From the IMG/VR virus record IMGVR_UViG_3300010331_000005: a stretch of DNA of 46,122 bases; one strand, given 5' to 3'. Positions 2,768 to 46,122 of the stretch are shown here, piece after piece. A program made the position numbers and the translations under genes. Source of the stretch: a virus. The notes below the pieces were generated by a model that saw nothing but the letters and a program-made list of their open reading frames with translations, was not told where the DNA came from and did no database searches. Each line of letters begins with the position of its first letter. Position 1 is the first letter of the stretch.

Positions 2768-3281
2768 GGTTAAACATGAAGAGGCAAGTTCAGGCGGCGG
2801 AGTAATGCCAGTAGGTGAGTATGAGGTAATAGTAAAATCAGCTTTAGAGGATGTTTTTAAAAGTGGAACTATATATATTAACGTCCCGCTTATTGTAAGA
2901 AATGACATCGAACAGCCATATAAAAACGCAATTATTTGGCATTCAATATGTCAAGTAAAAGAGCCTAAGGATGCAGATAAAGCTTGCGGTGGTTTTAGTT
3001 CATTTGGAATACAGTCTATAAGCAAAGCAGCCAATTTACAGAATGGTAAGAAATACGCGGGTCTGAATGAGTGGTGCGAGGATTTGAAAGGGAAATTAAT
3101 TCGTGTCACTGTTAAACATGAGGAATTCAACGGAGGCACGCAGGTTAAAGTTAAATATACCAATGAGACCAAATATCCAACTTGTAATCATGTTTACAAA
3201 ACAGCAGCGGCTAATTCCTCTGCTCCATCCGCCAAAGGACAAGCACCTAAACCAGGTAGTCTTGATGAACTTCCATTTTAA
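2760..3281 (+). CDS. DUF669-like phage protein (putative ssDNA-binding partner of Sak4)
   Basis: N-terminal GGGVMPVGEYEVIV motif, size, and position inside the Sak4/helicase/primase module. SD aggagg. Confidence 0.5.
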   Translation: MFEVKHEEASSGGGVMPVGEYEVIVKSALEDVFKSGTIYINVPLIVRNDIEQPYKNAIIWHSICQVKEPKDADKACGGFSSFGIQSISKAANLQNGKKYAGLNEWCEDLKGKLIRVTVKHEEFNGGTQVKVKYTNETKYPTCNHVYKTAAANSSAPSAKGQAPKPGSLDELPF

Positions 3282-31332: not shown

Positions 31333-32499
31333 ATGTTAGGAACAAACGGTTATAAGAAATTGAGGTGTTTGGGATCTGATGTCCACACCTTTGAATGCAG
31401 CAAATCACAGAATGAAGTAATTTATGTTCAAGGTGTAAAAGGTAAATTAGAAACACTAGCAGATATGGTTAAAGCTTATCCGGATGCAATTATGGCGTGC
31501 AATGGTCCATTTTTTAATTTTGATGCTAGCAGCGAGGACTGTATCCGGTGGAGTAAATATGCTACAACGGTTTCCTATACAAAGGATAGTAAATTGCTCT
31601 TTCTATATGGTGCAAAATTAACACAAACTCAAAGAAATAAGTATGAAGCAGATGCAAGATGGACAGCAGGATTAGGAGCTACATTGGTACGCAATGGAGT
31701 TAAAGATATTATAAAAACTACGGCAGGAGAACCTGATAGTCGTGCAGCAAGAACGATACTTATGCGTACAAAAGATGGTTCATTCATGTTTGCGGCAGTG
31801 CAAGGAAAAATGAAAGCATGCGCAGGACTCAAAGCAATGGCTACAATTAGTCCCTTCAACAAAGGTATGAACGCAGAAGAAGCAGCTGCCTTTTCCATAT
31901 ATGCTAAAGCAGAGCAATCCGCATTTTGTGATGGCGGCGGATCCAGTATAATGATAATAAAAATTAATGGGAAATGGGTGACAGTAAACAAACCTACTGA
32001 TGGGAGCTCCCGGCATATCGGTGGTTGTTTTATTGTCTTAAAAAAAAACGCTGATACCCTGTTCATAGAAAAAATAGCACCTGGAGCTGTTGCATCATTT
32101 GCCAAGGATCAAGTGCTTCCTTCCATTACAATTGCACAAGCAATACTCGAATCTGCTAAGGGCTTGTCTAAACTTGCTTTAGAATGCAATAATTTGTTTG
32201 GTATCAAGTGGACTATGGGATGTGGGCATGAGGGTAAATTATACCCAACTAAAGAATATGTTAACGGTAAAATGATTACGGTTAACGCTTATTTTCGCAA
32301 GTATGATTCATATGCTGAAAGTATTGCAGACCACAGTCAGTTGTTACAGAACACGCGATACAAGCCTGTTCTTGCTTCAAAAGAGTACAAGTCTGCTTGC
32401 AAACAAATACAAGCTTGTGGCTATGCAACGGATCCCGAATATAGCCAACTACTGATCAATACGATCGAAAAATACAAATTAAATTTATTTGATATTTAA
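31333..32499 (+). CDS. Endolysin: N-terminal phosphodiester-glycosidase (NAGPA)-like domain plus C-terminal glucosaminidase
   Basis: CNGPFFNF, AARTILMRTKDGSFMF and FCDGGGSS (NAGPA-like). ITIAQAILESAKG...NNLFGIKW...YFRKYDSY...GYATDPEY (glucosaminidase). Confidence 0.7.
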   Translation: MLGTNGYKKLRCLGSDVHTFECSKSQNEVIYVQGVKGKLETLADMVKAYPDAIMACNGPFFNFDASSEDCIRWSKYATTVSYTKDSKLLFLYGAKLTQTQRNKYEADARWTAGLGATLVRNGVKDIIKTTAGEPDSRAARTILMRTKDGSFMFAAVQGKMKACAGLKAMATISPFNKGMNAEEAAAFSIYAKAEQSAFCDGGGSSIMIIKINGKWVTVNKPTDGSSRHIGGCFIVLKKNADTLFIEKIAPGAVASFAKDQVLPSITIAQAILESAKGLSKLALECNNLFGIKWTMGCGHEGKLYPTKEYVNGKMITVNAYFRKYDSYAESIADHSQLLQNTRYKPVLASKEYKSACKQIQACGYATDPEYSQLLINTIEKYKLNLFDI

Positions 32500-32528: not shown

Positions 32529-32873
32529 ATGTTAGATTCATACATAATTGTCGGAATGGTCATGGTCTTAGTTGGGGTTGTAAAGACCTTCAGCCTGTTT
32601 ACTAGCATTAGGGGTAAACTGCTTATCCCACTGCTCGTTTTTGCCATAGCAGGTGCGCTGAATGTTCTCAATGCATTTGTATTTGGAGGAACTATTCTTC
32701 AGGCACTGAAAGATGGTTTTGTCCTTGGAGCTGCTGCAGGTGGAATTTATTCAATGGGCAAAGCAGCCATGAACATTAAATATGAAACGGTTGAACTTTT
32801 ACCAACGGATCCCTATGTAAAAGCTAATTCTGTGGAAGCTAAACAAACAGAGCAGAACAATAACTGTATATAA
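32529..32873 (+). CDS. Holin (three predicted TM segments)
   Basis: Hydrophobic segments IIVGMVMVLVGVV, LLIPLLVFAIAGALNVLNAFVF and VLGAAAGGIY, with a charged C-terminus. Confidence 0.65.
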   Translation: MLDSYIIVGMVMVLVGVVKTFSLFTSIRGKLLIPLLVFAIAGALNVLNAFVFGGTILQALKDGFVLGAAAGGIYSMGKAAMNIKYETVELLPTDPYVKANSVEAKQTEQNNNCI

Positions 32874-32890
32874 AGTTCCTCCTATACTTA

Positions 32891-32932
32891 AGCCCTCGTT
32901 TCCTTAACTGGATGCGAGGGCTATATTTTTTT
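32891..32932 (+). terminator. Rho-independent terminator ending the late/lysis operon
   Basis: agccctcg...cgagggct stem followed by atattttttt. Confidence 0.8.
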
Positions 32933-33086
32933 GCCCAAAAGAAATTATAATTTAATGCTAAAATATCGGTATGCTTTAAATATCATGCAAAAATATTAAT
33001 AAAAATGTAAAACTTGTTTTGCAGACATAAATTATGGGAAATTATATTAATACATGGCAATATTATATAATTAACAAAAGAAAATA

Positions 33087-33140
33087 CGTTTAATTACACA
33101 TATTTAAGAAAATATATGTAATTAAACGAAATAATTCGTT
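33087..33140. repeat. Operator-like inverted repeats upstream of the GNAT-module promoter
   Basis: cgtttaattaca (33087-33098) pairs with tgtaattaaacg (33117-33128), 12/12. Overlapping palindrome aacgaa-ataa-ttcgtt (33125-33140). Confidence 0.6.
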
Positions 33141-33159
33141 ATATTTCGTCAAATAAGGT

Positions 33160-33189
33160 TTGACAATACTTGCCAAGGAGTGTTAATAT
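33160..33189 (+). promoter_or_regulatory. Near-consensus sigma-A promoter with extended -10
   Basis: TTGACA (33160-65), 18-nt spacer, TGtTAATAT (33181-89). Confidence 0.65.
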
Positions 33190-33256
33190 TATGGTACATA
33201 ATGGATTTACAGAAGAAAATGAAGAACTAAAAATGTGTGAGGGAGGGTATGATATT

Positions 33257-33391
33257 ATGGCAGTTTCAGTAAAATCATCGCCTATAATTACCGGGGCGGC
33301 AGCAAAAAAAATATTTGAAATGATTAAAAATCCAACTGACAAAACAGCGCTTTTTAAAGAATGCGCAGAATTGGCAAAAATCTTCAACTAA
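33257..33391 (+). CDS. 44-aa partner protein of the GNAT (putative minimal antitoxin)
   Basis: MAVSVKSSPIITGAAAKKIFEMIKNPTDKTALFKECAELAKIFN. SD gagggaggg is 9 nt upstream. The track start 33170 lies upstream of the predicted transcription start. Confidence 0.5.
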   Translation: MAVSVKSSPIITGAAAKKIFEMIKNPTDKTALFKECAELAKIFN

Positions 33392-33403
33392 GTAAACACT
33401 AGG

Positions 33404-33976
33404 ATGCGTGACTCATTTATGCTAAAAATAAGGGACATTGAATTATCTGATTTACCAAAGATTAAAAAATTTAAATGTAGTGATTCTAAAATGGATTATT
33501 TTCTAATTAAGGAAGCATATTATTATCATGTAATAGGTGAAGGAATTACAAAATTAGTTGTAGATGTGGAAAACAATGAAATTGTAGGATATTTTACTTT
33601 GAAGTGTGATTCAATGAAAGTTTTCGACATTGAAATGAGTACAGAACCAGAGTATATTCCATGCATAGAACTATCACGTATAGCTATTGCTAATCATTGG
33701 CAGAATGGCGTTAGGGGGTACCATCTAGGTACACATTTAATGGGACATATTTTAAACTTAATACAAACCCAAATTTCTACGGTTATTGGGTGTAAATTTA
33801 TTACTCTTCATGCTGCAATGGATAGAGTTAAATGGTATAATAAAAGATTCTCGTTTATTGAAGTGGAAGACGAAAAAACTATTGGGAAAGATGATACAGT
33901 TTATATGTGTTTAGATATTACAGATAAAAGCAAAGCAGATGAATTTTCCAAATTCGTAAGTTTTCACAAAAAATAA
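33404..33976 (+). CDS. GNAT-fold acetyltransferase of the TacT/AtaT/KacT toxin type
   Basis: KKFKCSDSKMDYFLIKEA, VGYFTLKCDSMKV, ELSRIAIANHWQNGVRGYHLGTHLMGHIL (acetyl-CoA loop) and ITLHAAMDRVKWYNKRFSFIEV. Confidence 0.6.
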   Translation: MRDSFMLKIRDIELSDLPKIKKFKCSDSKMDYFLIKEAYYYHVIGEGITKLVVDVENNEIVGYFTLKCDSMKVFDIEMSTEPEYIPCIELSRIAIANHWQNGVRGYHLGTHLMGHILNLIQTQISTVIGCKFITLHAAMDRVKWYNKRFSFIEVEDEKTIGKDDTVYMCLDITDKSKADEFSKFVSFHKK

Positions 33977-34000
33977 AGCTTCAAAGCTTTATTTTTTTTT
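33973..34000 (+). terminator. Terminator after the GNAT gene
   Basis: ataaagc-ttcaaa-gctttat followed by a run of nine T. Confidence 0.7.
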
Positions 34001-34006
34001 GCTTTT

Positions 34007-34174
34007 TTAGCTATTGATTTTAACAATATTTTCTTCCGCACTTTCTTCATGAGTTATCACTTCTACTTGACTATCCTCTTTCGACATCCAAGCATGAAAA
34101 CCTTCATGATGCTTATAGCTATATTGCATCTGATAGAGAGAATAGCCTTTTTCAATCAAAGCTAATTTTAGCAT
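34007..34174 (-). CDS. Possible 55-aa ORF (or the distal piece of a decayed gene)
   Basis: MLKLALIEKGYSLYQMQYSYKHHEGFHAWMSKEDSQVEVITHEESAEENIVKINS. Weak SD. An upstream fragment in another frame reads LLNRLLNENKITIEQYEQHIKLKLEFLNE. Confidence 0.3.
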   Translation of the reverse strand: MLKLALIEKGYSLYQMQYSYKHHEGFHAWMSKEDSQVEVITHEESAEENIVKINS

Positions 34175-34341
34175 TTCCCACATTACAATAGAATCTATTA
34201 TTTTTACACTCGTTCAAAAACTCCAATTTTAATTTAATGTGCTGTTCATATTGTTCTATGGTAATTTTATTTTCATTCAGGAGCCTATTAAGTAAAATTA
34301 TAATCTTTTCACAATTTCTTCCATAACGCACCCCTATAAAT

Positions 34342-34512
34342 TTAATAAGGTGATAATATCATGATAGTATAATAATGTAAATAGATTATAATAGTGGGAA
34401 TTGTTACATTTTTAATTTCGTCTACATTTAATGTTACCCAATCATAAACTTTTGGTACTCTAATACATTCATTAGTTGGATCTCCTGTGGCTCGTGTCGA
34501 AAAATTAGACAT
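34342..34512 (-). pseudogene. Truncated gene remnant (56 codons)
   Basis: Good SD aaaggaag and a plausible N-terminus MSNFSTRATGDPTNECIRVPKVYDWVTLNVDEIKNVTIP. It then runs into AT-rich nonsense (TIIIYLHYYTIMILSPY*). Confidence 0.35.
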
Positions 34513-34631
34513 AATTTTAAACTTCCTTTCATAATTGAATTGTTTAATTAATATAGTATATGTTACATAAAGTAATCTGTTAACATAAATAATATTATTT
34601 TACATATATATTTTGGTAGTAATTAAATAAA

Positions 34632-34730
34632 TTATGACAGCTAAAACAGCTAAACCGCAAACTTTTCTTTTTCTTATATATACTTCTCTATTTACAATAC
34701 TTATACTTTTAGCTGTTTTAGCTGTCATAA
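34632..34730. repeat. Perfect 23-bp inverted repeat with 53-nt spacer; each arm is a tandem ACAGCTAAA 9-mer
   Basis: ttatgACAGCTAAAACAGCTAAA (34632-54) is the exact reverse complement of tttagctgttttagctgtcataa (34708-30). Confidence 0.9.
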
Positions 34731-34767
34731 AAGAATATATATATAATAGCATTGTATAAATGTATTA

Positions 34768-35405: not shown

Positions 35406-35930
35406 ATGATAGAAATAATTAAAAAGAAACCTATTTATAAAAAGGTTTGGTTTTGGATAATTGCATTATTTTTTTTAATTAGTGTTATTAGTGCTGTAAC
35501 AGGAGATGAAAATAGTTCAAATACAGTATCTAATAATATGAATACAATTCAAGAAGCTAAGTCTCAATCCGCATCTACGGTTGCTCCAACACCTAAACCA
35601 ACACTTTCACCTGCTGAAATAGCTAAAAAAGCTGAAGATGATAAAATAAATGCTGAGGTGCAAAAAGTTACTGATCATAAGATATGGGTTGATGCTTTAT
35701 TTAGTCCGTGGGATGGAAGTTGTAAAGAATTAGTTAAACTAATCAAAGATAACATGAATGATCCTGATAGTTTCAAACATGTTGATACAAGGTTTACTAA
35801 TAATAAAGATGATAGCGTTACTATTATTATGAAATATAGGGGAAAGAATTCATTTGGTGGTGTTGTTACCGAATATGTTGAAGCAAAAGCTGATTATAAA
35901 ACGAATATGATATCAATTGTTTCTCAATAA
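35406..35930 (+). CDS. Membrane-anchored or secreted protein (candidate superinfection exclusion)
   Basis: N-terminal TM VWFWIIALFFLISVISAV, Ser/Thr/Pro linker, then a C-terminal globular domain NDPDSFKHV...YRGKNSFGGVV. Confidence 0.6.
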   Translation: MIEIIKKKPIYKKVWFWIIALFFLISVISAVTGDENSSNTVSNNMNTIQEAKSQSASTVAPTPKPTLSPAEIAKKAEDDKINAEVQKVTDHKIWVDALFSPWDGSCKELVKLIKDNMNDPDSFKHVDTRFTNNKDDSVTIIMKYRGKNSFGGVVTEYVEAKADYKTNMISIVSQ

Positions 35931-36977: not shown

Positions 36978-38207
36978 TTAAACTTTCCTTTTCTTTTGAA
37001 ACAACTGTATAACTTTTCCTTCTTTTTTTTCTTCTATTTTATCCATTTCATTATCTAGATCATTAAATGCTTGATCAATTTTACTAGCAACTTTTTGAGT
37101 ATCAGACAACATAGTTCCATATATATCTTCAGTTGTTGTAGATTCGTCATGTCCTAAAGCTTCTTGCAATTCTGATCTAGTTAATAACCCTTTAGACATA
37201 TAAACGAAAGTATGTCTAAACATATGTGGAGTTACATGTATATTGGCTTTTAAATTAATTCTATCTATTGCACTATTAAAACTATCCGGTTTTAATAAAG
37301 TGCCTTTTTCAGATGGGAATATTAAGTCTATTTTTTTAAGATCTTCATTAAACAATATTGGATTTGTTTCATTGATTAACATTTCTTTTTGCATATTCAA
37401 ATAATAGATAGCTCTATCTGATAAAGGAACATAATGCAACTCTGCGGATTTTGTATCTCCAATGCCTGATGCACTATTTGATTCATCAATTGTAATTCTT
37501 TTATCTTTAAAGTCGATATCTGACCATTTAAGAGCTAGAAGCTCACCTCTGCGAAGTCCAGTTACTAGTAAAAATCTCATTGCCCAATACCAGCGTGTTT
37601 TTTTTGCATACTCGAATAGTATTTTTAACTCTGATGTTTTGAGTGTCTTTCTTGGCTTGGCTTGTTTGTTTGGTATCTCTATTTTGCAAACTGGATTTTC
37701 AGCTATAACTTTATCGTCAACTGCTTTTGTAAATGCAATGTTCATAACTTTTCTAACGTGTTTCATTGTCCAGGTGCTTAACTTTTCACCGGAATCGTAT
37801 GTTTCCCATTCCTTTGTTTCTTTATTTTTCCTTCTGACTTGTTTAGTTTTCTTATTCATTTCAGCTATTATTTGTTGAATATCGTACTTTTTTATACTTG
37901 ATAGTTTCTTTTTTCCTATTTCAGGTTTAATATGTTGCTCCCATAAATATTTATATTGCTCGTAAGTTGCTGGTTTTTTTAATGGTTCTACATATATATT
38001 AAGCCATTTTTCAAACCAATCAGCAACAGTTATTTTTACTTTAATTATTGGAAGTCCAGCAACATCTTTAATTTTCTCTTGCAACTCTTTTGGTGTCCTG
38101 GCTGTAATTTGGCGCAGATCACCATCAATCATTTGTTTCCATTTAATACGTCCATCTTTTAGTTTGGTATAACTTCCTTGGCCATTAGGATTTTTTTGTT
38201 TAGGCAT
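36978..38207 (-). CDS. int: Tyrosine integrase
   Basis: GLRRGELLAL (R), HMFRHTF (HxxR), LGHDES (H), EDIYGTM (Y). Start MPKQKNPNGQG after aaggagg, not the track start 38330. Confidence 0.9.
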   Translation of the reverse strand: MPKQKNPNGQGSYTKLKDGRIKWKQMIDGDLRQITARTPKELQEKIKDVAGLPIIKVKITVADWFEKWLNIYVEPLKKPATYEQYKYLWEQHIKPEIGKKKLSSIKKYDIQQIIAEMNKKTKQVRRKNKETKEWETYDSGEKLSTWTMKHVRKVMNIAFTKAVDDKVIAENPVCKIEIPNKQAKPRKTLKTSELKILFEYAKKTRWYWAMRFLLVTGLRRGELLALKWSDIDFKDKRITIDESNSASGIGDTKSAELHYVPLSDRAIYYLNMQKEMLINETNPILFNEDLKKIDLIFPSEKGTLLKPDSFNSAIDRINLKANIHVTPHMFRHTFVYMSKGLLTRSELQEALGHDESTTTEDIYGTMLSDTQKVASKIDQAFNDLDNEMDKIEEKKEGKVIQLFQKKRKV

Positions 38208-41470: not shown

Positions 41471-43204
41471 ATGAGTGAATGCATCGATTGCTCTGATAAG
41501 AAGATTTCACGAACATACAGCTGCATTTTTGCAATGGCTTGGGAATATGAAGATGGAACAAACAGTTGCGGATTAGCAGGAACAAACATGGACTGTCACT
41601 GGTGCGAAAAGTACCTGGAACAAAAAACTAGACGTGAAGATGAAAACTGTAAGCTTGCCAGAATGGTTGGATATTCAGATAATCCATCAACTCCATATGA
41701 ACGGCATTGTGTAGATGAAATTATATATCCAGATGGTAGTTTTGCATGGTGGGAAGTAGGAGTTGATATGTTTAACAGTCTCCAAGAAGCAATACAGAAC
41801 GGATACACAATGGATTTTGAATGGCAGAAGGAGGAAAAGAATAAAGTGAATAACGAAATTGAAAGGAGCAAAAACATGATTCAAAATATTGATATTACAA
41901 AGATTCATTCCCATTATAATAATCCTCGTAAGAATCTCGGTGACCTTACCGAATTAGCACAAAGTATAAAAAATAGTGGGATATTACAAAACCTAACAGT
42001 AGTTCCTTGGTTTTCTCAAATCACAGGTGTCGGCGCTGATAGTCCAAAACAACAGGAGGAAATGGGATACATCGCTGTTATTGGTCACCGTCGTCTTGCA
42101 GCTGCAAAACTCGCAGGATTGACAGAAGTACCATGTTCAATATCAAATATGGACCTTCGTCAACAAGTTGGTACAATGCTACTCGAGAATATGCAGAGGA
42201 GCGACCTGACTATCTATGAGCAAGCTCAAGGGATTCAAATGATGATGGACCTTGGTGATACTGTTGGTGATATCTCCAGTAAAACTGGATTCTCATATAC
42301 AACTGTAAGCCGTAGAGTAAAGCTTCTTGAATTTGATAGTGATAAATTCCGCAAATCAGTTGAAAGAGGCGGGACTTTGATGGATTATGCTGAGCTGGAA
42401 AAAATTCATGATGTTGAATTACGAAATAAGGTACTTGAAAAAATCGGTACACCTAATTTTAAATGGGAATTACAAAGCGCTATCGATAAGGAAAAAAGTG
42501 AAGTAAGATTGGCATTAATAATTACTGAACTGAAGAAATTCGCAACACAAGTAGAAGATACAAAAGGACTGCAATATGTCAAAAACTACTATAATTCTAA
42601 GCCGGAAGATATTACTGAACCTGACGACACTGATACTAAAGAATATTTTTTCAAAGTATCAAATTATGGTTCTATTGACTTATACAAGAAAACAGAGATA
42701 TCAGAAAAGACCTTTAATAGTTACGTATCTGATGAAAAACAGAAAGAACTTAGAGAGAACCAAGCTGCTCTTGAAGAAATATCCAAACAAGCATATCAGA
42801 TCAGACGTTCCTTTATTCTTGATTATTCTAGCACTCGAGCTAAAAAGTGTATAAGCATAATCATTGAATATTTATTAAGAGGTATGTTAGATGGAAGTTA
42901 TGATCTTGATTATGATGACTTCTCTGAAGCTCTCAATATAAAGATTGAAGAAGATGCAGAATGGAAATTCGATGATTTTGCCCCTAAAATTACTGCTCAG
43001 CCAGAACAACACTTACTTATTGCAACCTATTTAGCAATTGAGTCGAAGAGAGAACATTATTATAACTGGAATAACCAACATTACAACAATGAAAATTTAA
43101 ATATGGTTTATGATTTCCTCGAAAAACTTGGATATGAAATGTCAGAAGAAGAACAGTCACTCCGCGATGGTACGCACAAGCTATTTCAAATTACTAATAC
43201 TTGA
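41471..43204 (+). CDS. ParB/Srx-domain protein with Cys-rich N-terminal extension; possible nested start at 41877
   Basis: IDITKIHSHYNNPRK...LAQSIKNSGILQNLTVVP...IAVIGHRRLAAAKLAGLTEVPC (ParB N-terminal domain with GHRR). Internal gaaaggag-N7-ATG at 41877. Confidence 0.75.
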   Translation: MSECIDCSDKKISRTYSCIFAMAWEYEDGTNSCGLAGTNMDCHWCEKYLEQKTRREDENCKLARMVGYSDNPSTPYERHCVDEIIYPDGSFAWWEVGVDMFNSLQEAIQNGYTMDFEWQKEEKNKVNNEIERSKNMIQNIDITKIHSHYNNPRKNLGDLTELAQSIKNSGILQNLTVVPWFSQITGVGADSPKQQEEMGYIAVIGHRRLAAAKLAGLTEVPCSISNMDLRQQVGTMLLENMQRSDLTIYEQAQGIQMMMDLGDTVGDISSKTGFSYTTVSRRVKLLEFDSDKFRKSVERGGTLMDYAELEKIHDVELRNKVLEKIGTPNFKWELQSAIDKEKSEVRLALIITELKKFATQVEDTKGLQYVKNYYNSKPEDITEPDDTDTKEYFFKVSNYGSIDLYKKTEISEKTFNSYVSDEKQKELRENQAALEEISKQAYQIRRSFILDYSSTRAKKCISIIIEYLLRGMLDGSYDLDYDDFSEALNIKIEEDAEWKFDDFAPKITAQPEQHLLIATYLAIESKREHYYNWNNQHYNNENLNMVYDFLEKLGYEMSEEEQSLRDGTHKLFQITNT

Positions 43205-44538: not shown

Positions 44539-46011
44539 TTGAAAATATCATTTTTAAAACTAAAAAATTGTTTAGGAGTTAAGGAATTAGAATTCAAACC
44601 AGGTGAGATTACTTTAATTGAAGGTGAAGAAGGACAGGGCAAAACATCAATACTGGAATCTATACAAAGATTCTTCTATAACAAGTCAGAACGTCAGGTG
44701 TTTGTTAATTCAGATGCTGAAAAAGCTGAAACATATCTTGACTTGGATGATGGAACCACGATGAAAAAGTATGTAAATAAAGATGGCAAGACTACCACTA
44801 CAACAATTGATAAAGGTGGTATGTCACCAAATAAGCCTGAGGACTTTTTGAAAGGATTAGTAAGCGAGAGACAACTTAATCCAATTAGTTTGATTCAGAT
44901 GGAGGACAAGGACCTGACAGCTTTGATTTTATCTCTTATGCCTATAAAGGTAACCAAAGAAGATTTACAGGCATGGCTTCAAGAGATTCCACTAGGTGTT
45001 GACTGTGGAAAACATGGTTTGCAAGTGTGCAAGGAAGTTGAGAAGTATTATTTTGATGCCAGGACGGATTTGAACCGTAAGATTAAAGATCTCTCCGGTG
45101 AAATAAAAACAGCGATAACAAAACTACCTGAAAATTATAATGCTGATGAATGGCGTAATGTTTCTCTTCAGGAAAAATATGAAGCTATCAGCAATGCTAA
45201 TAAAGATAACGCTGCTCGCATTAATAATCAGACAATAGTTGATAGAGCAAACGACAAAGTTGAAGCATTCCGTAGCAGCTGCAAAATTGATATTGCCGAA
45301 GCTAAGAGATTAAACGAAGAAGGTAAGCTATCTACCAATGCCAGCATTACCAATTTAGAAGTTCAAATAGCGTTATTAAAATTGAATCTTGAGCAGGCAG
45401 ACAGTAAATGCGTAGAAAGCGTTGCTGATATTACAGAATCGTACAAGAAGTTGGCCAACAATGTAACTGATGAGAGTAAATTGGCTGAAACATATCTAGC
45501 AGAAAATACAGTTATTGACATTGCGCCTCTCGAAGCAGCACATAAAGAAGCTGAAACAATGAAATCTTATGTCAGAACAGCTGATGATCTTAAAGTTAAA
45601 GAAACGGATTTTGCTGCAAAAGAAATAAAAGCTAAGGATTATAAAAATAAAATTGAGTATATGAGGACTAAACCTCAGATGCTTCTGGCTAAGGCAGAGA
45701 TGCCCATTGAAGGACTTGCAGTAGATAGCCAAGGTTTTATTACAATAAACGAAAGACCAATTATAAGCCTTTCAGGTGGAGAAAGAATCAAATTCGTAAT
45801 GAATATTGTTAGGGCAACAGCTGGAGAATTAAAAATTATTCTTATCGATGGATTTGAGAAGCTTTCACCAAAGGGACAAATGGAATTTATCAATGAATGC
45901 TCTGGTGATGGGTTCCAATATATTATCACGAAAGTTACAGATGGAGAAATGAGAATTACAAGTATTCAAGATGGTAAAAAGATAGATGCTTTGACAGGTG
46001 AACAATTATAA
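44539..46011 (+). CDS. SMC/Rad50/RecF-like ABC ATPase (recombination)
   Basis: N-terminal Walker A EGEEGQGKTS, long coiled-coil middle, C-terminal signature LSGGERIKF and Walker B IILIDGFEKL. TTG start after aaaggggg. Confidence 0.75.
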   Translation: MKISFLKLKNCLGVKELEFKPGEITLIEGEEGQGKTSILESIQRFFYNKSERQVFVNSDAEKAETYLDLDDGTTMKKYVNKDGKTTTTTIDKGGMSPNKPEDFLKGLVSERQLNPISLIQMEDKDLTALILSLMPIKVTKEDLQAWLQEIPLGVDCGKHGLQVCKEVEKYYFDARTDLNRKIKDLSGEIKTAITKLPENYNADEWRNVSLQEKYEAISNANKDNAARINNQTIVDRANDKVEAFRSSCKIDIAEAKRLNEEGKLSTNASITNLEVQIALLKLNLEQADSKCVESVADITESYKKLANNVTDESKLAETYLAENTVIDIAPLEAAHKEAETMKSYVRTADDLKVKETDFAAKEIKAKDYKNKIEYMRTKPQMLLAKAEMPIEGLAVDSQGFITINERPIISLSGGERIKFVMNIVRATAGELKIILIDGFEKLSPKGQMEFINECSGDGFQYIITKVTDGEMRITSIQDGKKIDALTGEQL

Positions 46012-46122
46012 GGAAAAGGGGGGTAATTGAATAATGAGTTTATTTGAAACTGCTACAAGGGAAAAGGCAAAATTAAGATTAGCTTTAACAGGACCTTCAG
46101 GAGCAGGTAAAACATTGTCAGC
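46000..46122. repeat. Terminal overlap, copy 2 (duplicates the end of the SMC-like gene and the start of the Sak4-like gene)
   Basis: Identical to bases 1-123, read directly. Confidence 0.95.

Follow-up and report, generated by a model that had tools for sequence, protein, structure and literature searches.

A GNAT of the tRNA-acetylating-toxin type and its small partner without a ribbon-helix-helix domain: a candidate toxin-antitoxin-like cassette in a phage genome

The viral sequence IMGVR_UViG_3300010331_000005 (46,122 bp; "the window" below means this whole stretch of DNA) carries a two-gene cassette at about 33160-34000. Its second gene encodes a GNAT acetyltransferase of the TacT/AtaT/KacT toxin clade. 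Its first gene encodes a small partner protein with a 44-aa core, which lacks the ribbon-helix-helix (RHH) domain found in the known antitoxins of such toxins. The pair is conserved, it is closed off by terminators, and it sits between lysis and lysogeny genes. The reading that is somewhat favoured here is that the cassette is expressed in the lysogen, and that it consists of a GNAT toxin and a minimal antitoxin that has no DNA-binding domain. What this reading adds to the comparisons of sequence and predicted structure is that the GNAT would be toxic, that its target would be tRNA, that the partner would neutralise it by binding, that the promoter would be active, and that the pair would have a role in the biology of the phage.

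The GNAT gene lies at 33404-33976 on the plus strand and encodes 190 aa. An alternative ATG at 33419, which is the choice of another gene caller, gives 185 aa. PHROG family 1758, labelled 'acetyltransferase', matches the protein at 1.9e-23. Close relatives are few: eight other homologues were found in 5.8 billion proteins, with identities of 52-77%. A profile built from these nine sequences (the GNAT of the window and the eight homologues) matches 14 PDB sequences at E<1, and all of these are GNAT toxins from toxin-antitoxin (TA) systems of type II. The matches include AtaT2 (7f37, 1.3e-11), GmvT (9ilr, 5e-9) and TacT (2.5e-7), and further TacT1/TacT (7ak8, 5fvj), TacT (7f36), AtaT, TacT2 (7ak7), KacT and TacT3 (6g96). 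The original prediction had allowed for a match to a housekeeping or antibiotic acetyltransferase instead; there is none among these sequences.

The predicted fold agrees with the profile. A Foldseek search with the AlphaFold (AF2) model of the GNAT returns exclusively ItaT, AtaT2, AtaT, KacT, TacT1-3 and GmvT at ranks 1-32 (E 1.8e-11 to 1.9e-8, template-modelling (TM) scores 0.61-0.77, TMt 0.67-0.77). General N-acetyltransferases enter the list from rank 33, with lower TM-scores. The motifs also align, which bears out the toxin-like layout that had been read from the sequence. The N-terminal motif F-x-C-[GS]...L-x-x-[FW]-L, here FKCSDSKMDYFL, aligns with FCCSDHGMNEWL of AtaT2 and FDCGNEVLSNWL of GmvT. 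The acetyl-CoA pyrophosphate loop is SRIAI...G-x-x-LG, where the toxins have GRLAI...GKGLG, and it carries a 4-residue insertion. The residues of both motif and loop are invariant across the GNAT family. By profile and predicted fold, the tRNA-acetylating toxins (TacT/AtaT/KacT/ItaT/GmvT) are what the GNAT resembles most, and no other group comes as close. The characterised members of this clade (TacT, AtaT, KacT, ItaT and GmvT) acetylate the alpha-amino group of aminoacyl-tRNA, by which translation is arrested.

The partner is found directly upstream of the GNAT, and co-oriented with it, in 12 of 12 distinct GNAT loci, with a gap of 3-27 nt or an overlap of 16 nt. These loci are the window, L001, L002, L004, L008, L009, L010, L012, L013, L021, L026 and L030, with L002/3, L004-7, L010/11 and L021/22 treated as grouped copies. 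The pairing is kept over deep divergence: in L021 the partner matches its family profile at 6.5e-13, and the GNAT its own at 3e-20. The original prediction leaned on the small open reading frame (ORF) being conserved next to GNAT homologues, and so it is. Among the loci found there is no GNAT without a partner; a partner without a GNAT does occur. In L026 (Peptococcaceae metagenome-assembled genome (MAG) JAAYUV010000003.1, 3153-5177) an IS3-type insertion sequence (IS) of ~1.4 kb, with OrfA/OrfB on the opposite strand, interrupts the GNAT at profile position 33; the upstream partner is intact.

The surroundings of the pair vary. The L001 and L009 pairs lie just after a phage endolysin and the L002 pair near an integrase, and other pairs have non-phage contexts; the pair therefore moves as a cassette. 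Most loci have a terminator 3' of the GNAT, which is GC-rich in L001, L008, L010, L012 and L013. An alignment of the GNAT finds no relatives in IMG/VR and GTDB genomes, and genome scans with the partner alignment add six loci only (L025-L030). The partner core has no match in the INPHARED phages.

The partner gene has two models. The 44-aa core is encoded at 33257-33391 (plus strand), where the ATG at 33257 is preceded, after a gap of 9 nt, by the Shine-Dalgarno sequence (SD) GGGAGGG at 33241-33247. Public gene callers choose a long model of 66 aa (P0010) at 33191-33391 on the same strand, with the SD AAGGAG at 33175-33180, 10 nt ahead of its ATG, and they give the homologues 63-78 aa. Conservation in the partner family starts exactly at the Met of the 44-codon ORF, which is M23 of the 66-aa form. 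The 44-codon ORF with a strong SD that had been singled out is thus present and equals the conserved core, although it has to compete with the 66-aa model.

An exhaustive profile search for the partner yields 67 representative clusters at E<1e-3. The family motif is M-A-V-S-x-K-x-x-P-[VI]-x-x-G-x-x-A-x-K...NP, and the invariant or nearly invariant residues are M23, V25, S26, K28, P31, G35, A38, K40 and P48 (66-aa numbering). At least 16 of the 67 clusters are proteins of 43-99 aa that start at the core Met, and natural relatives of 46-54 aa start there too. An SD stands ahead of the internal start in 14 of 14 loci. L010 has the residues LEVDV ahead of the core, yet its DNA keeps the SD GGAGGTGAT; the partner of L026 has a TTG start, preceded by AAGGAGGTG.

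Four loci of equal length allow codons to be compared. The core shows 11-18 synonymous versus 4-7 non-synonymous differences, and the extension 0-1 versus 4-9. Judged by these counts, the core is under purifying selection. Around the internal ATG a stretch of 40 nt does not vary between these loci, third positions included, which is the signature of a translation-initiation region. The N-terminal extension is poorly conserved, and disordered in the AF2 model. Its frame 0 nevertheless has no stop in 9 of 9 loci, versus 1-6 stops in the other frames, and length differences between lineages are whole codons. These patterns suggest that the functional unit of the partner is its 44-aa core, and that an N-terminally extended isoform is probably made too in many members.

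The extension can also be taken for a leader. In that case the 66-aa ORF would be a bacteriocin-like precursor, its leader being of the double-glycine type (E-L-K-x-x-x-G-G), and the GNAT a modifying or immunity enzyme. Several loci do read [DE]E[LI]K-x-x-x-GG in the extension, and the double-glycine leader consensus resembles this. L004-L007 adjoin a LytTR response regulator and a histidine kinase, and L010 adjoins a SPASM-domain protein. The GG is however missing in many members (which have LEVDV, EELEI or KVKR), and the relatives that start at the core Met have no leader. Third positions around the internal ATG do not vary, as in a ribosome-binding site and unlike a leader under selection on the protein, and GGAGG or GGAGGTG is kept even where the residues differ from GG. 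The called genes of the surrounding 20 kb have neither a C39-peptidase domain nor another transporter domain on record. The leader was rejected because of the unconserved GG, the substitution pattern and the lack of an exporter domain among these called genes, and a bacteriocin is very improbable.

No RHH domain could be found in the partner. Pfam, with its RHH families and DUF1778 (PF08681) included, has no match for any of 26 partner members at E<=10, so that the upstream ORF is RHH-less, as the original prediction had it. A comparison with PDB sequences gives a chance match only, and none to TacA, AtaR or KacA. A Foldseek search with the partner model has no match either. The AF2 model shows an extended segment (23-34) and two helices (35-46 and 52-64), with the conserved N-P turn between the helices.

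For a profile-profile comparison with the partner, the sequences of AtaR, KacA and TacA3 were taken from the PDB. The best hhalign alignment sets partner residues 32-57 (IITGAAAKKIFEMIKNPTDKTALFKE) against AtaR 55-80 (ILNEESWTRVMDALSNPPSPGEKLKR), with E 0.012-0.03 and a probability of 1.6-3.6%. AtaR 55-80 falls inside the 44-88 peptide that was crystallised on AtaT (6gtq), and hhalign aligned no part of the partner to AtaR 1-54, the RHH half. It is reported that AtaR neutralises AtaT via its disordered C-terminal region (PMC7758455). The partner thus appears to resemble, weakly, the toxin-neutralising C-terminal segment of DUF1778 antitoxins; the likeness is suggestive. The original prediction had compared the ORF with just this segment. 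The pairing with AtaR would fit that comparison; a DUF1778 match in Pfam is lacking.

Several results weigh against a toxin with its antitoxin. The hhalign probability for the likeness to DUF1778 is low. The score of that alignment is 16.1, versus 9.0 +/- 1.7 (maximum 14.9) in 200 column shuffles, but such shuffles destroy helical periodicity too, which overstates the significance. Pfam, NCBIfam and PADLOC scans of the GNAT have no match even at E<=10, and NCBIfam and PADLOC have none for the partner. The Pfam check that had been suggested for both proteins therefore recognises neither, and it is the PDB profile search that names TA toxins for the GNAT. The AF2 model of the GNAT (predicted local distance difference test, pLDDT, 74; predicted TM-score, pTM, 0.71) is built on 9 sequences only. 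The catalytic tyrosine of the toxins (Y145 in KacT, Y144 in AtaT) is another difficulty. Two HMMER alignments, with KacT and AtaT2, were checked column by column, and in them the invariant W-Y of the GNAT (Y140 in the 185-aa form) sits one residue ahead of KacT Y145 and of the FY of AtaT2. In the family member P0009, a deletion of one residue restores the canonical spacing. Lastly, GNATs with short non-DNA-binding upstream ORFs have been placed outside the 'true TA clade', with the remark that they may function otherwise (Bikmetov et al. 2022, PMC9177977).

That remark, the unmatched toxin and defence models and the ambiguous register of the tyrosine also speak for a different reading. The GNAT would then be a non-toxic acetyltransferase that no longer lives as a toxin, with for example a host or phage protein or a small molecule as its target, and the partner its substrate, adaptor or allosteric regulator. 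The invariant partner lysines K28 and K40 would suit this, as would TacT, which is known to acetylate its antitoxin TacA (PMC5449658). Such an enzyme is unlikely here. All close neighbours of the GNAT in structure and sequence are tRNA-acetylating toxins, the GNAT is never found alone while the partner is, the IS in L026 disrupted the GNAT and spared the partner, and the partner relatives described next suggest tRNA. The dependence on a partner, the split GNAT of L026 and the links to tRNA fit a toxin that has an essential neutraliser and is tied to tRNA biology.

Two relatives of the partner provide the links to tRNA. P0081 (305 aa, on a single 1710-nt JGI/ENA contig) combines an N-terminus that resembles a zinc ribbon with the partner core at residues 97-138 (E 2.3e-5 in a search of 1.8 billion proteins) and a C-terminal PTH2 peptidyl-tRNA hydrolase domain (PF01981, 4.5e-17). 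According to passages in PMC4942678 and PMC9241777, Pth hydrolyses acetylated aminoacyl-tRNA, which reverses the effect of TacT. The other relative, P0028 (48 aa, 3001-3147), is the sole protein-coding gene in an array of 22 tRNA genes (L018:836-3974). L018 is JAAZIP010000018.1, a Thermoanaerobacteraceae MAG, and the same tRNA-array copy is present in L019, L020 and L027. The PTH2 fusion and the tRNA-array copy appear to be independent links of the partner family to tRNA, although circumstantial ones.

A further orphan, P0025 (50 aa), lies between the large terminase and portal genes of a different phage (L015-L017, L025, L028 and L029, at ~2950-3150). Its neighbours are tiny cysteine-rich ORFs, and there is no GNAT within 3 kb. 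The contexts of the orphan copies hold no matching promoter. It is at least possible, if rather doubtful, that a partner of ~45 aa is a portable neutraliser of tRNA-acetylating GNATs, which serves as cognate antitoxin in modules and as anti-defence factor when it stands alone. Anti-defence copies would in that case be those among structural genes, in tRNA arrays, or fused to PTH2, whose hydrolase would also repair acetylated aminoacyl-tRNA. If this were true, GNAT toxins in Firmicutes would truly serve as a weapon against phages or between them, and the phages would have a matching counter-measure. Apart from this, isoforms that differ in stability might arise from the in-frame starts of the partner (66 aa and 44 aa) and so set the trigger.

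The layout recurs with more distant GNATs of phages, which is again circumstantial evidence for a toxin with a neutraliser. In Bacteroides phage BS-TP1 the motif MARPIKNTPVLYGKDAERF occurs in an ORF that overlaps an acetyltransferase, beside an integrase. This ORF, gp121 (167 aa, L024:1008-1511, PQ571274.1), has the motif MARPIKNTPVLYGKDAERF only in its last ~70 residues. The Met of this motif, just ahead of gp120, the acetyltransferase, may be the true start of the gp121 gene. In Acinetobacter phage YMC/09/02/B1251, a 49-aa ORF precedes an acetyltransferase by 15 nt.

A promoter-like element of the sigma-70 type precedes the pair at 33160-33189 on the plus strand. It consists of TTGACA (33160-33165), an 18-nt spacer, TG (33181-33182) and TAATAT (33184-33189), and it agrees with the consensus at 10 of 12 positions, with the TG in addition. 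This is the near-consensus promoter of the original prediction, present as described and presumably active. Within the window alone such elements are no more frequent than chance, with 12 matches versus 11.1 expected from shuffles. The element stands above chance because its architecture is conserved in related loci. Of 12 related loci, 11 have TTGnnn-N13-15-TGnTAnnnT upstream of the small gene, versus 0.3-6% of dinucleotide shuffles per locus; this pattern was defined only after the related sequences had been inspected. In 10 related loci the order is TTGnnn, 17-18 nt, TGnTAnnnT, 0-2 nt and then the ATG of the long model; L030 has a similar element placed further upstream. The TGAT part of the motif overlaps the canonical Gram-positive SD (GGAGGTGAT), and the independent evidence for a promoter is therefore mainly the -35 TTG at fixed spacing.

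The position of the element bears on the two gene models. Its -10 box falls between the SD (AAGGAG) and the ATG of the 66-aa model. Given the standard spacing from a -10 box to the start of transcription, transcripts from this promoter should start near 33196. They should encode the 44-aa product only, because the -10 box lies 3' of the SD of the long model. L001 and L008 have a second, stronger promoter-like element ~45 nt further upstream, from which transcripts would include the long start.

The intergenic region before the promoter-like element (32874-33159, 285 nt) is very AT-rich, with 24.5% GC. An AT-rich inverted repeat occupies 33087-33128. Its 19-nt arms (33087-33105 and 33110-33128) have 1 mismatch (95% complementary) and enclose a 4-nt loop, with a folding free energy (dG) of -15.6; on the minus strand it scores terminator-like. 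The 12-bp perfect inverted repeat noticed earlier is there, as part of this larger one. The 6-4-6 palindrome AACGAA-ATAA-TTCGTT is there too, as read directly from the sequence at 33125-33140. Neither has a counterpart in 8 related loci, and across those loci no operator or inverted repeat is conserved upstream of the pair. The palindromes were therefore dropped as part of the module. The suggestion that another factor reads them as an operator finds no support, as they are specific to the window.

This bears on one more reading, in which the core of 44 aa would form a minimal RHH-like dimer and bind DNA, with the promoter region or the palindromes as its operator. The partner would in that case turn out to be a compact repressor or antitoxin. 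The strand-helix-helix order and the size are those of an RHH protein. The DNA-reading strands of RHH proteins such as Arc and CopG alternate hydrophobic and polar residues, and A-V-S-V-K in the core does the same, with S26 and K28 invariant. In L008, moreover, the -35 box is covered by a perfect palindrome of 18 bp. On the other side are the negative result with the Pfam RHH families, the absence of a PDB sequence or Foldseek match, and the hhalign pairing of the core with the half of DUF1778 that is not RHH. No inverted repeat is conserved between loci, and the orphan copies lack the matching promoter context. A DNA-binding core is thus quite improbable.

The cassette is insulated on both sides. 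On the left, an intrinsic terminator on the plus strand follows the holin-like gene at 32891-32932 (arms 32891-32903 and 32910-32922, dG -22.8, then T7). The right boundary at 33970-34000 is a bidirectional terminator formed by an A-tract, a hairpin and T9 (dG -10.6), on which minus-strand ORFs converge from the right. Only two ORFs lie between these terminators, and the nearest helix-turn-helix (HTH) genes are ~2 kb off, on the other strand. A scan of 32800-34300 with Rfam gives a sub-threshold chance match only. The terminators and the gene order confirm that there is an insulated two-gene unit between the lysis terminator and the lysogeny module. Because the cassette is bounded by terminators and appears to have its own conserved promoter-like element, expression in the lysogen is possible.

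The lysis side consists of an endolysin (31333-32499, 388 aa) and a holin-like protein (32529-32873, 114 aa), each with a match to the corresponding PHROG families. Almost all relatives of the endolysin are in Firmicute phages. To the right is a Sie-like membrane protein (35406-35930, plus strand, 174 aa) with an N-terminal membrane segment, which matches PHROG superinfection-exclusion families at 4.7e-8 and 7.1e-8. It would be a second candidate for a lysogen-protective gene in the same accessory region. Further right are HTH regulators, a tyrosine integrase (36978-38207, minus strand) and a repressor-like HTH protein. Going by the Firmicute relatives of the endolysin and by the flanking lysis, Sie-like, regulator and integrase genes, the cassette is in the classical position of a moron, in a temperate Firmicute phage, between lysis and lysogeny genes.

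If the favoured reading is right, the cassette would be a prophage moron that encodes a toxin-antitoxin-like pair and is transcribed in the lysogen. The GNAT, as a divergent member of its clade, would halt translation by acetylating aminoacyl-tRNA on the alpha-amino group. Binding of the 44-aa core (extended segment, helix, NP turn, helix) to the GNAT would obstruct the acetyl-CoA/tRNA site, as the disordered C-terminus of DUF1778 antitoxins does. Because it has no RHH domain, the partner would leave its own promoter unrepressed, and the cassette would be transcribed constitutively. Control would then be exerted via the stability or the synthesis of the partner, in place of conditional cooperativity. 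In the lysogen the pair might stabilise the prophage, or it might halt translation once the supply of partner fails, for example on superinfection.

GNAT-DUF1778 pairs are the obvious systems for comparison. The tRNA-acetylating GNAT toxins have mostly been studied as such pairs, on chromosomes and plasmids of Proteobacteria and mycobacteria, where they are regulated by an RHH antitoxin and discussed chiefly for persistence. The cassette shares with these systems (TacAT, AtaRT, AtaRT2, KacAT, ItaRT and GmvAT) the nearest toxin fold and motifs, and a small gene that comes first and is tightly linked. The partner core also has its elements (extended segment, helix, NP(P) turn, helix) in the order of the neutralising AtaR C-terminus, with which it aligns weakly. 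It differs in that the partner is about half the size and has neither RHH nor PF08681, which is why it is not filed under the GNAT/DUF1778 systems. Without an RHH domain, autoregulation by conditional cooperativity is not expected. In addition, Pfam and NCBIfam GNAT models do not recognise its GNAT, and its hosts are Firmicutes and their phages. In Firmicutes, hardly any homologues of GNAT toxins are reported (Bikmetov et al. 2022, PMC9177977).

The same work describes TA-like GNAT loci which, like the cassette, are bicistronic, with a toxin-related GNAT and a short ORF that has no predictable DNA-binding domain (PMC9177977). Most probably the cassette belongs to this uncharacterised group. 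The short ORFs there are called 'divergent' and their function is left open, whereas the one here stands for a coherent family of 67 clusters with a fixed motif. Added here is a family that can be defined for the short ORF, and whose orphan and fused members are informative.

There are precedents for parts of the arrangement. The DUF4065-GNAT system VcaAT is a GNAT system in which the antitoxin has been swapped (PMC9177977). It resembles the cassette in having a GNAT toxin with a non-DUF1778 partner, but DUF4065 is large and unrelated, and the Pfam scans here have no DUF4065 match. The partner is also proposed to act as neutraliser only, and in this it is like the antitoxin of the omega-epsilon-zeta modules. 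There the antitoxin has no DNA-binding domain, and omega, a separate gene in the operon, encodes the repressor. The cassette has no such third, DNA-binding gene, as just two genes fit between its terminators. For the orphans, the phage-encoded orphan antitoxin Dmd of T4 is comparable, given the stand-alone relatives between terminase and portal and in the tRNA array. Dmd has no sequence relationship to the partner, and a neutralising role of the orphans is suggested only by analogy.

If the favoured reading holds, this phage-borne Firmicute lineage would show that the neutralising peptide alone makes a viable and mobile module. The TA-like GNAT loci left unexplained by Bikmetov et al. would gain a family of partners that is defined, and a 44-aa inhibitor of this class of toxins would be a convenient tool. 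The orphans, the tRNA-array copy and the PTH2 fusion lead to the testable hypothesis of an arms race over the acetylation of aminoacyl-tRNA.

Some smaller observations concern the pair and its surroundings. In 7 of 10 loci partner and GNAT share one reading frame, with spacers of 3, 6, 9 or 12/27 nt; the observation covers the window (33191-33976), L001, L002, L004, L008, L009, L010 and L013. A read-through fusion was considered and rejected, because L012 and L021 break the pattern, the stops vary (TAA, TAG, TGA) and the lineages are few; the shared frame is a mere curiosity. The minus-strand ORFs that converge on the terminator of the cassette are three in number and small (58, 56 and 50 aa, 34007-34752), and a PHROG scan of the 58-aa and 56-aa ones is without match.

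The window as a whole has 35.6% GC, and the cassette less, at 30.6%. Near-identical copies of this JGI metagenome contig are present in JGI 3300022561, Logan and ENA. From the precomputed Pfam list of the identical contig, a 577-aa protein with a ParB_N domain is encoded at 41471-43204 (plus strand), with an ORF6N-domain protein upstream. The tail and baseplate proteins are of P2 type. The ends of the window are an exact direct repeat of 123 nt (1-123 = 46000-46122), which is either real terminal redundancy or an overlap left by the assembly of a genome that is circular or circularly permuted.

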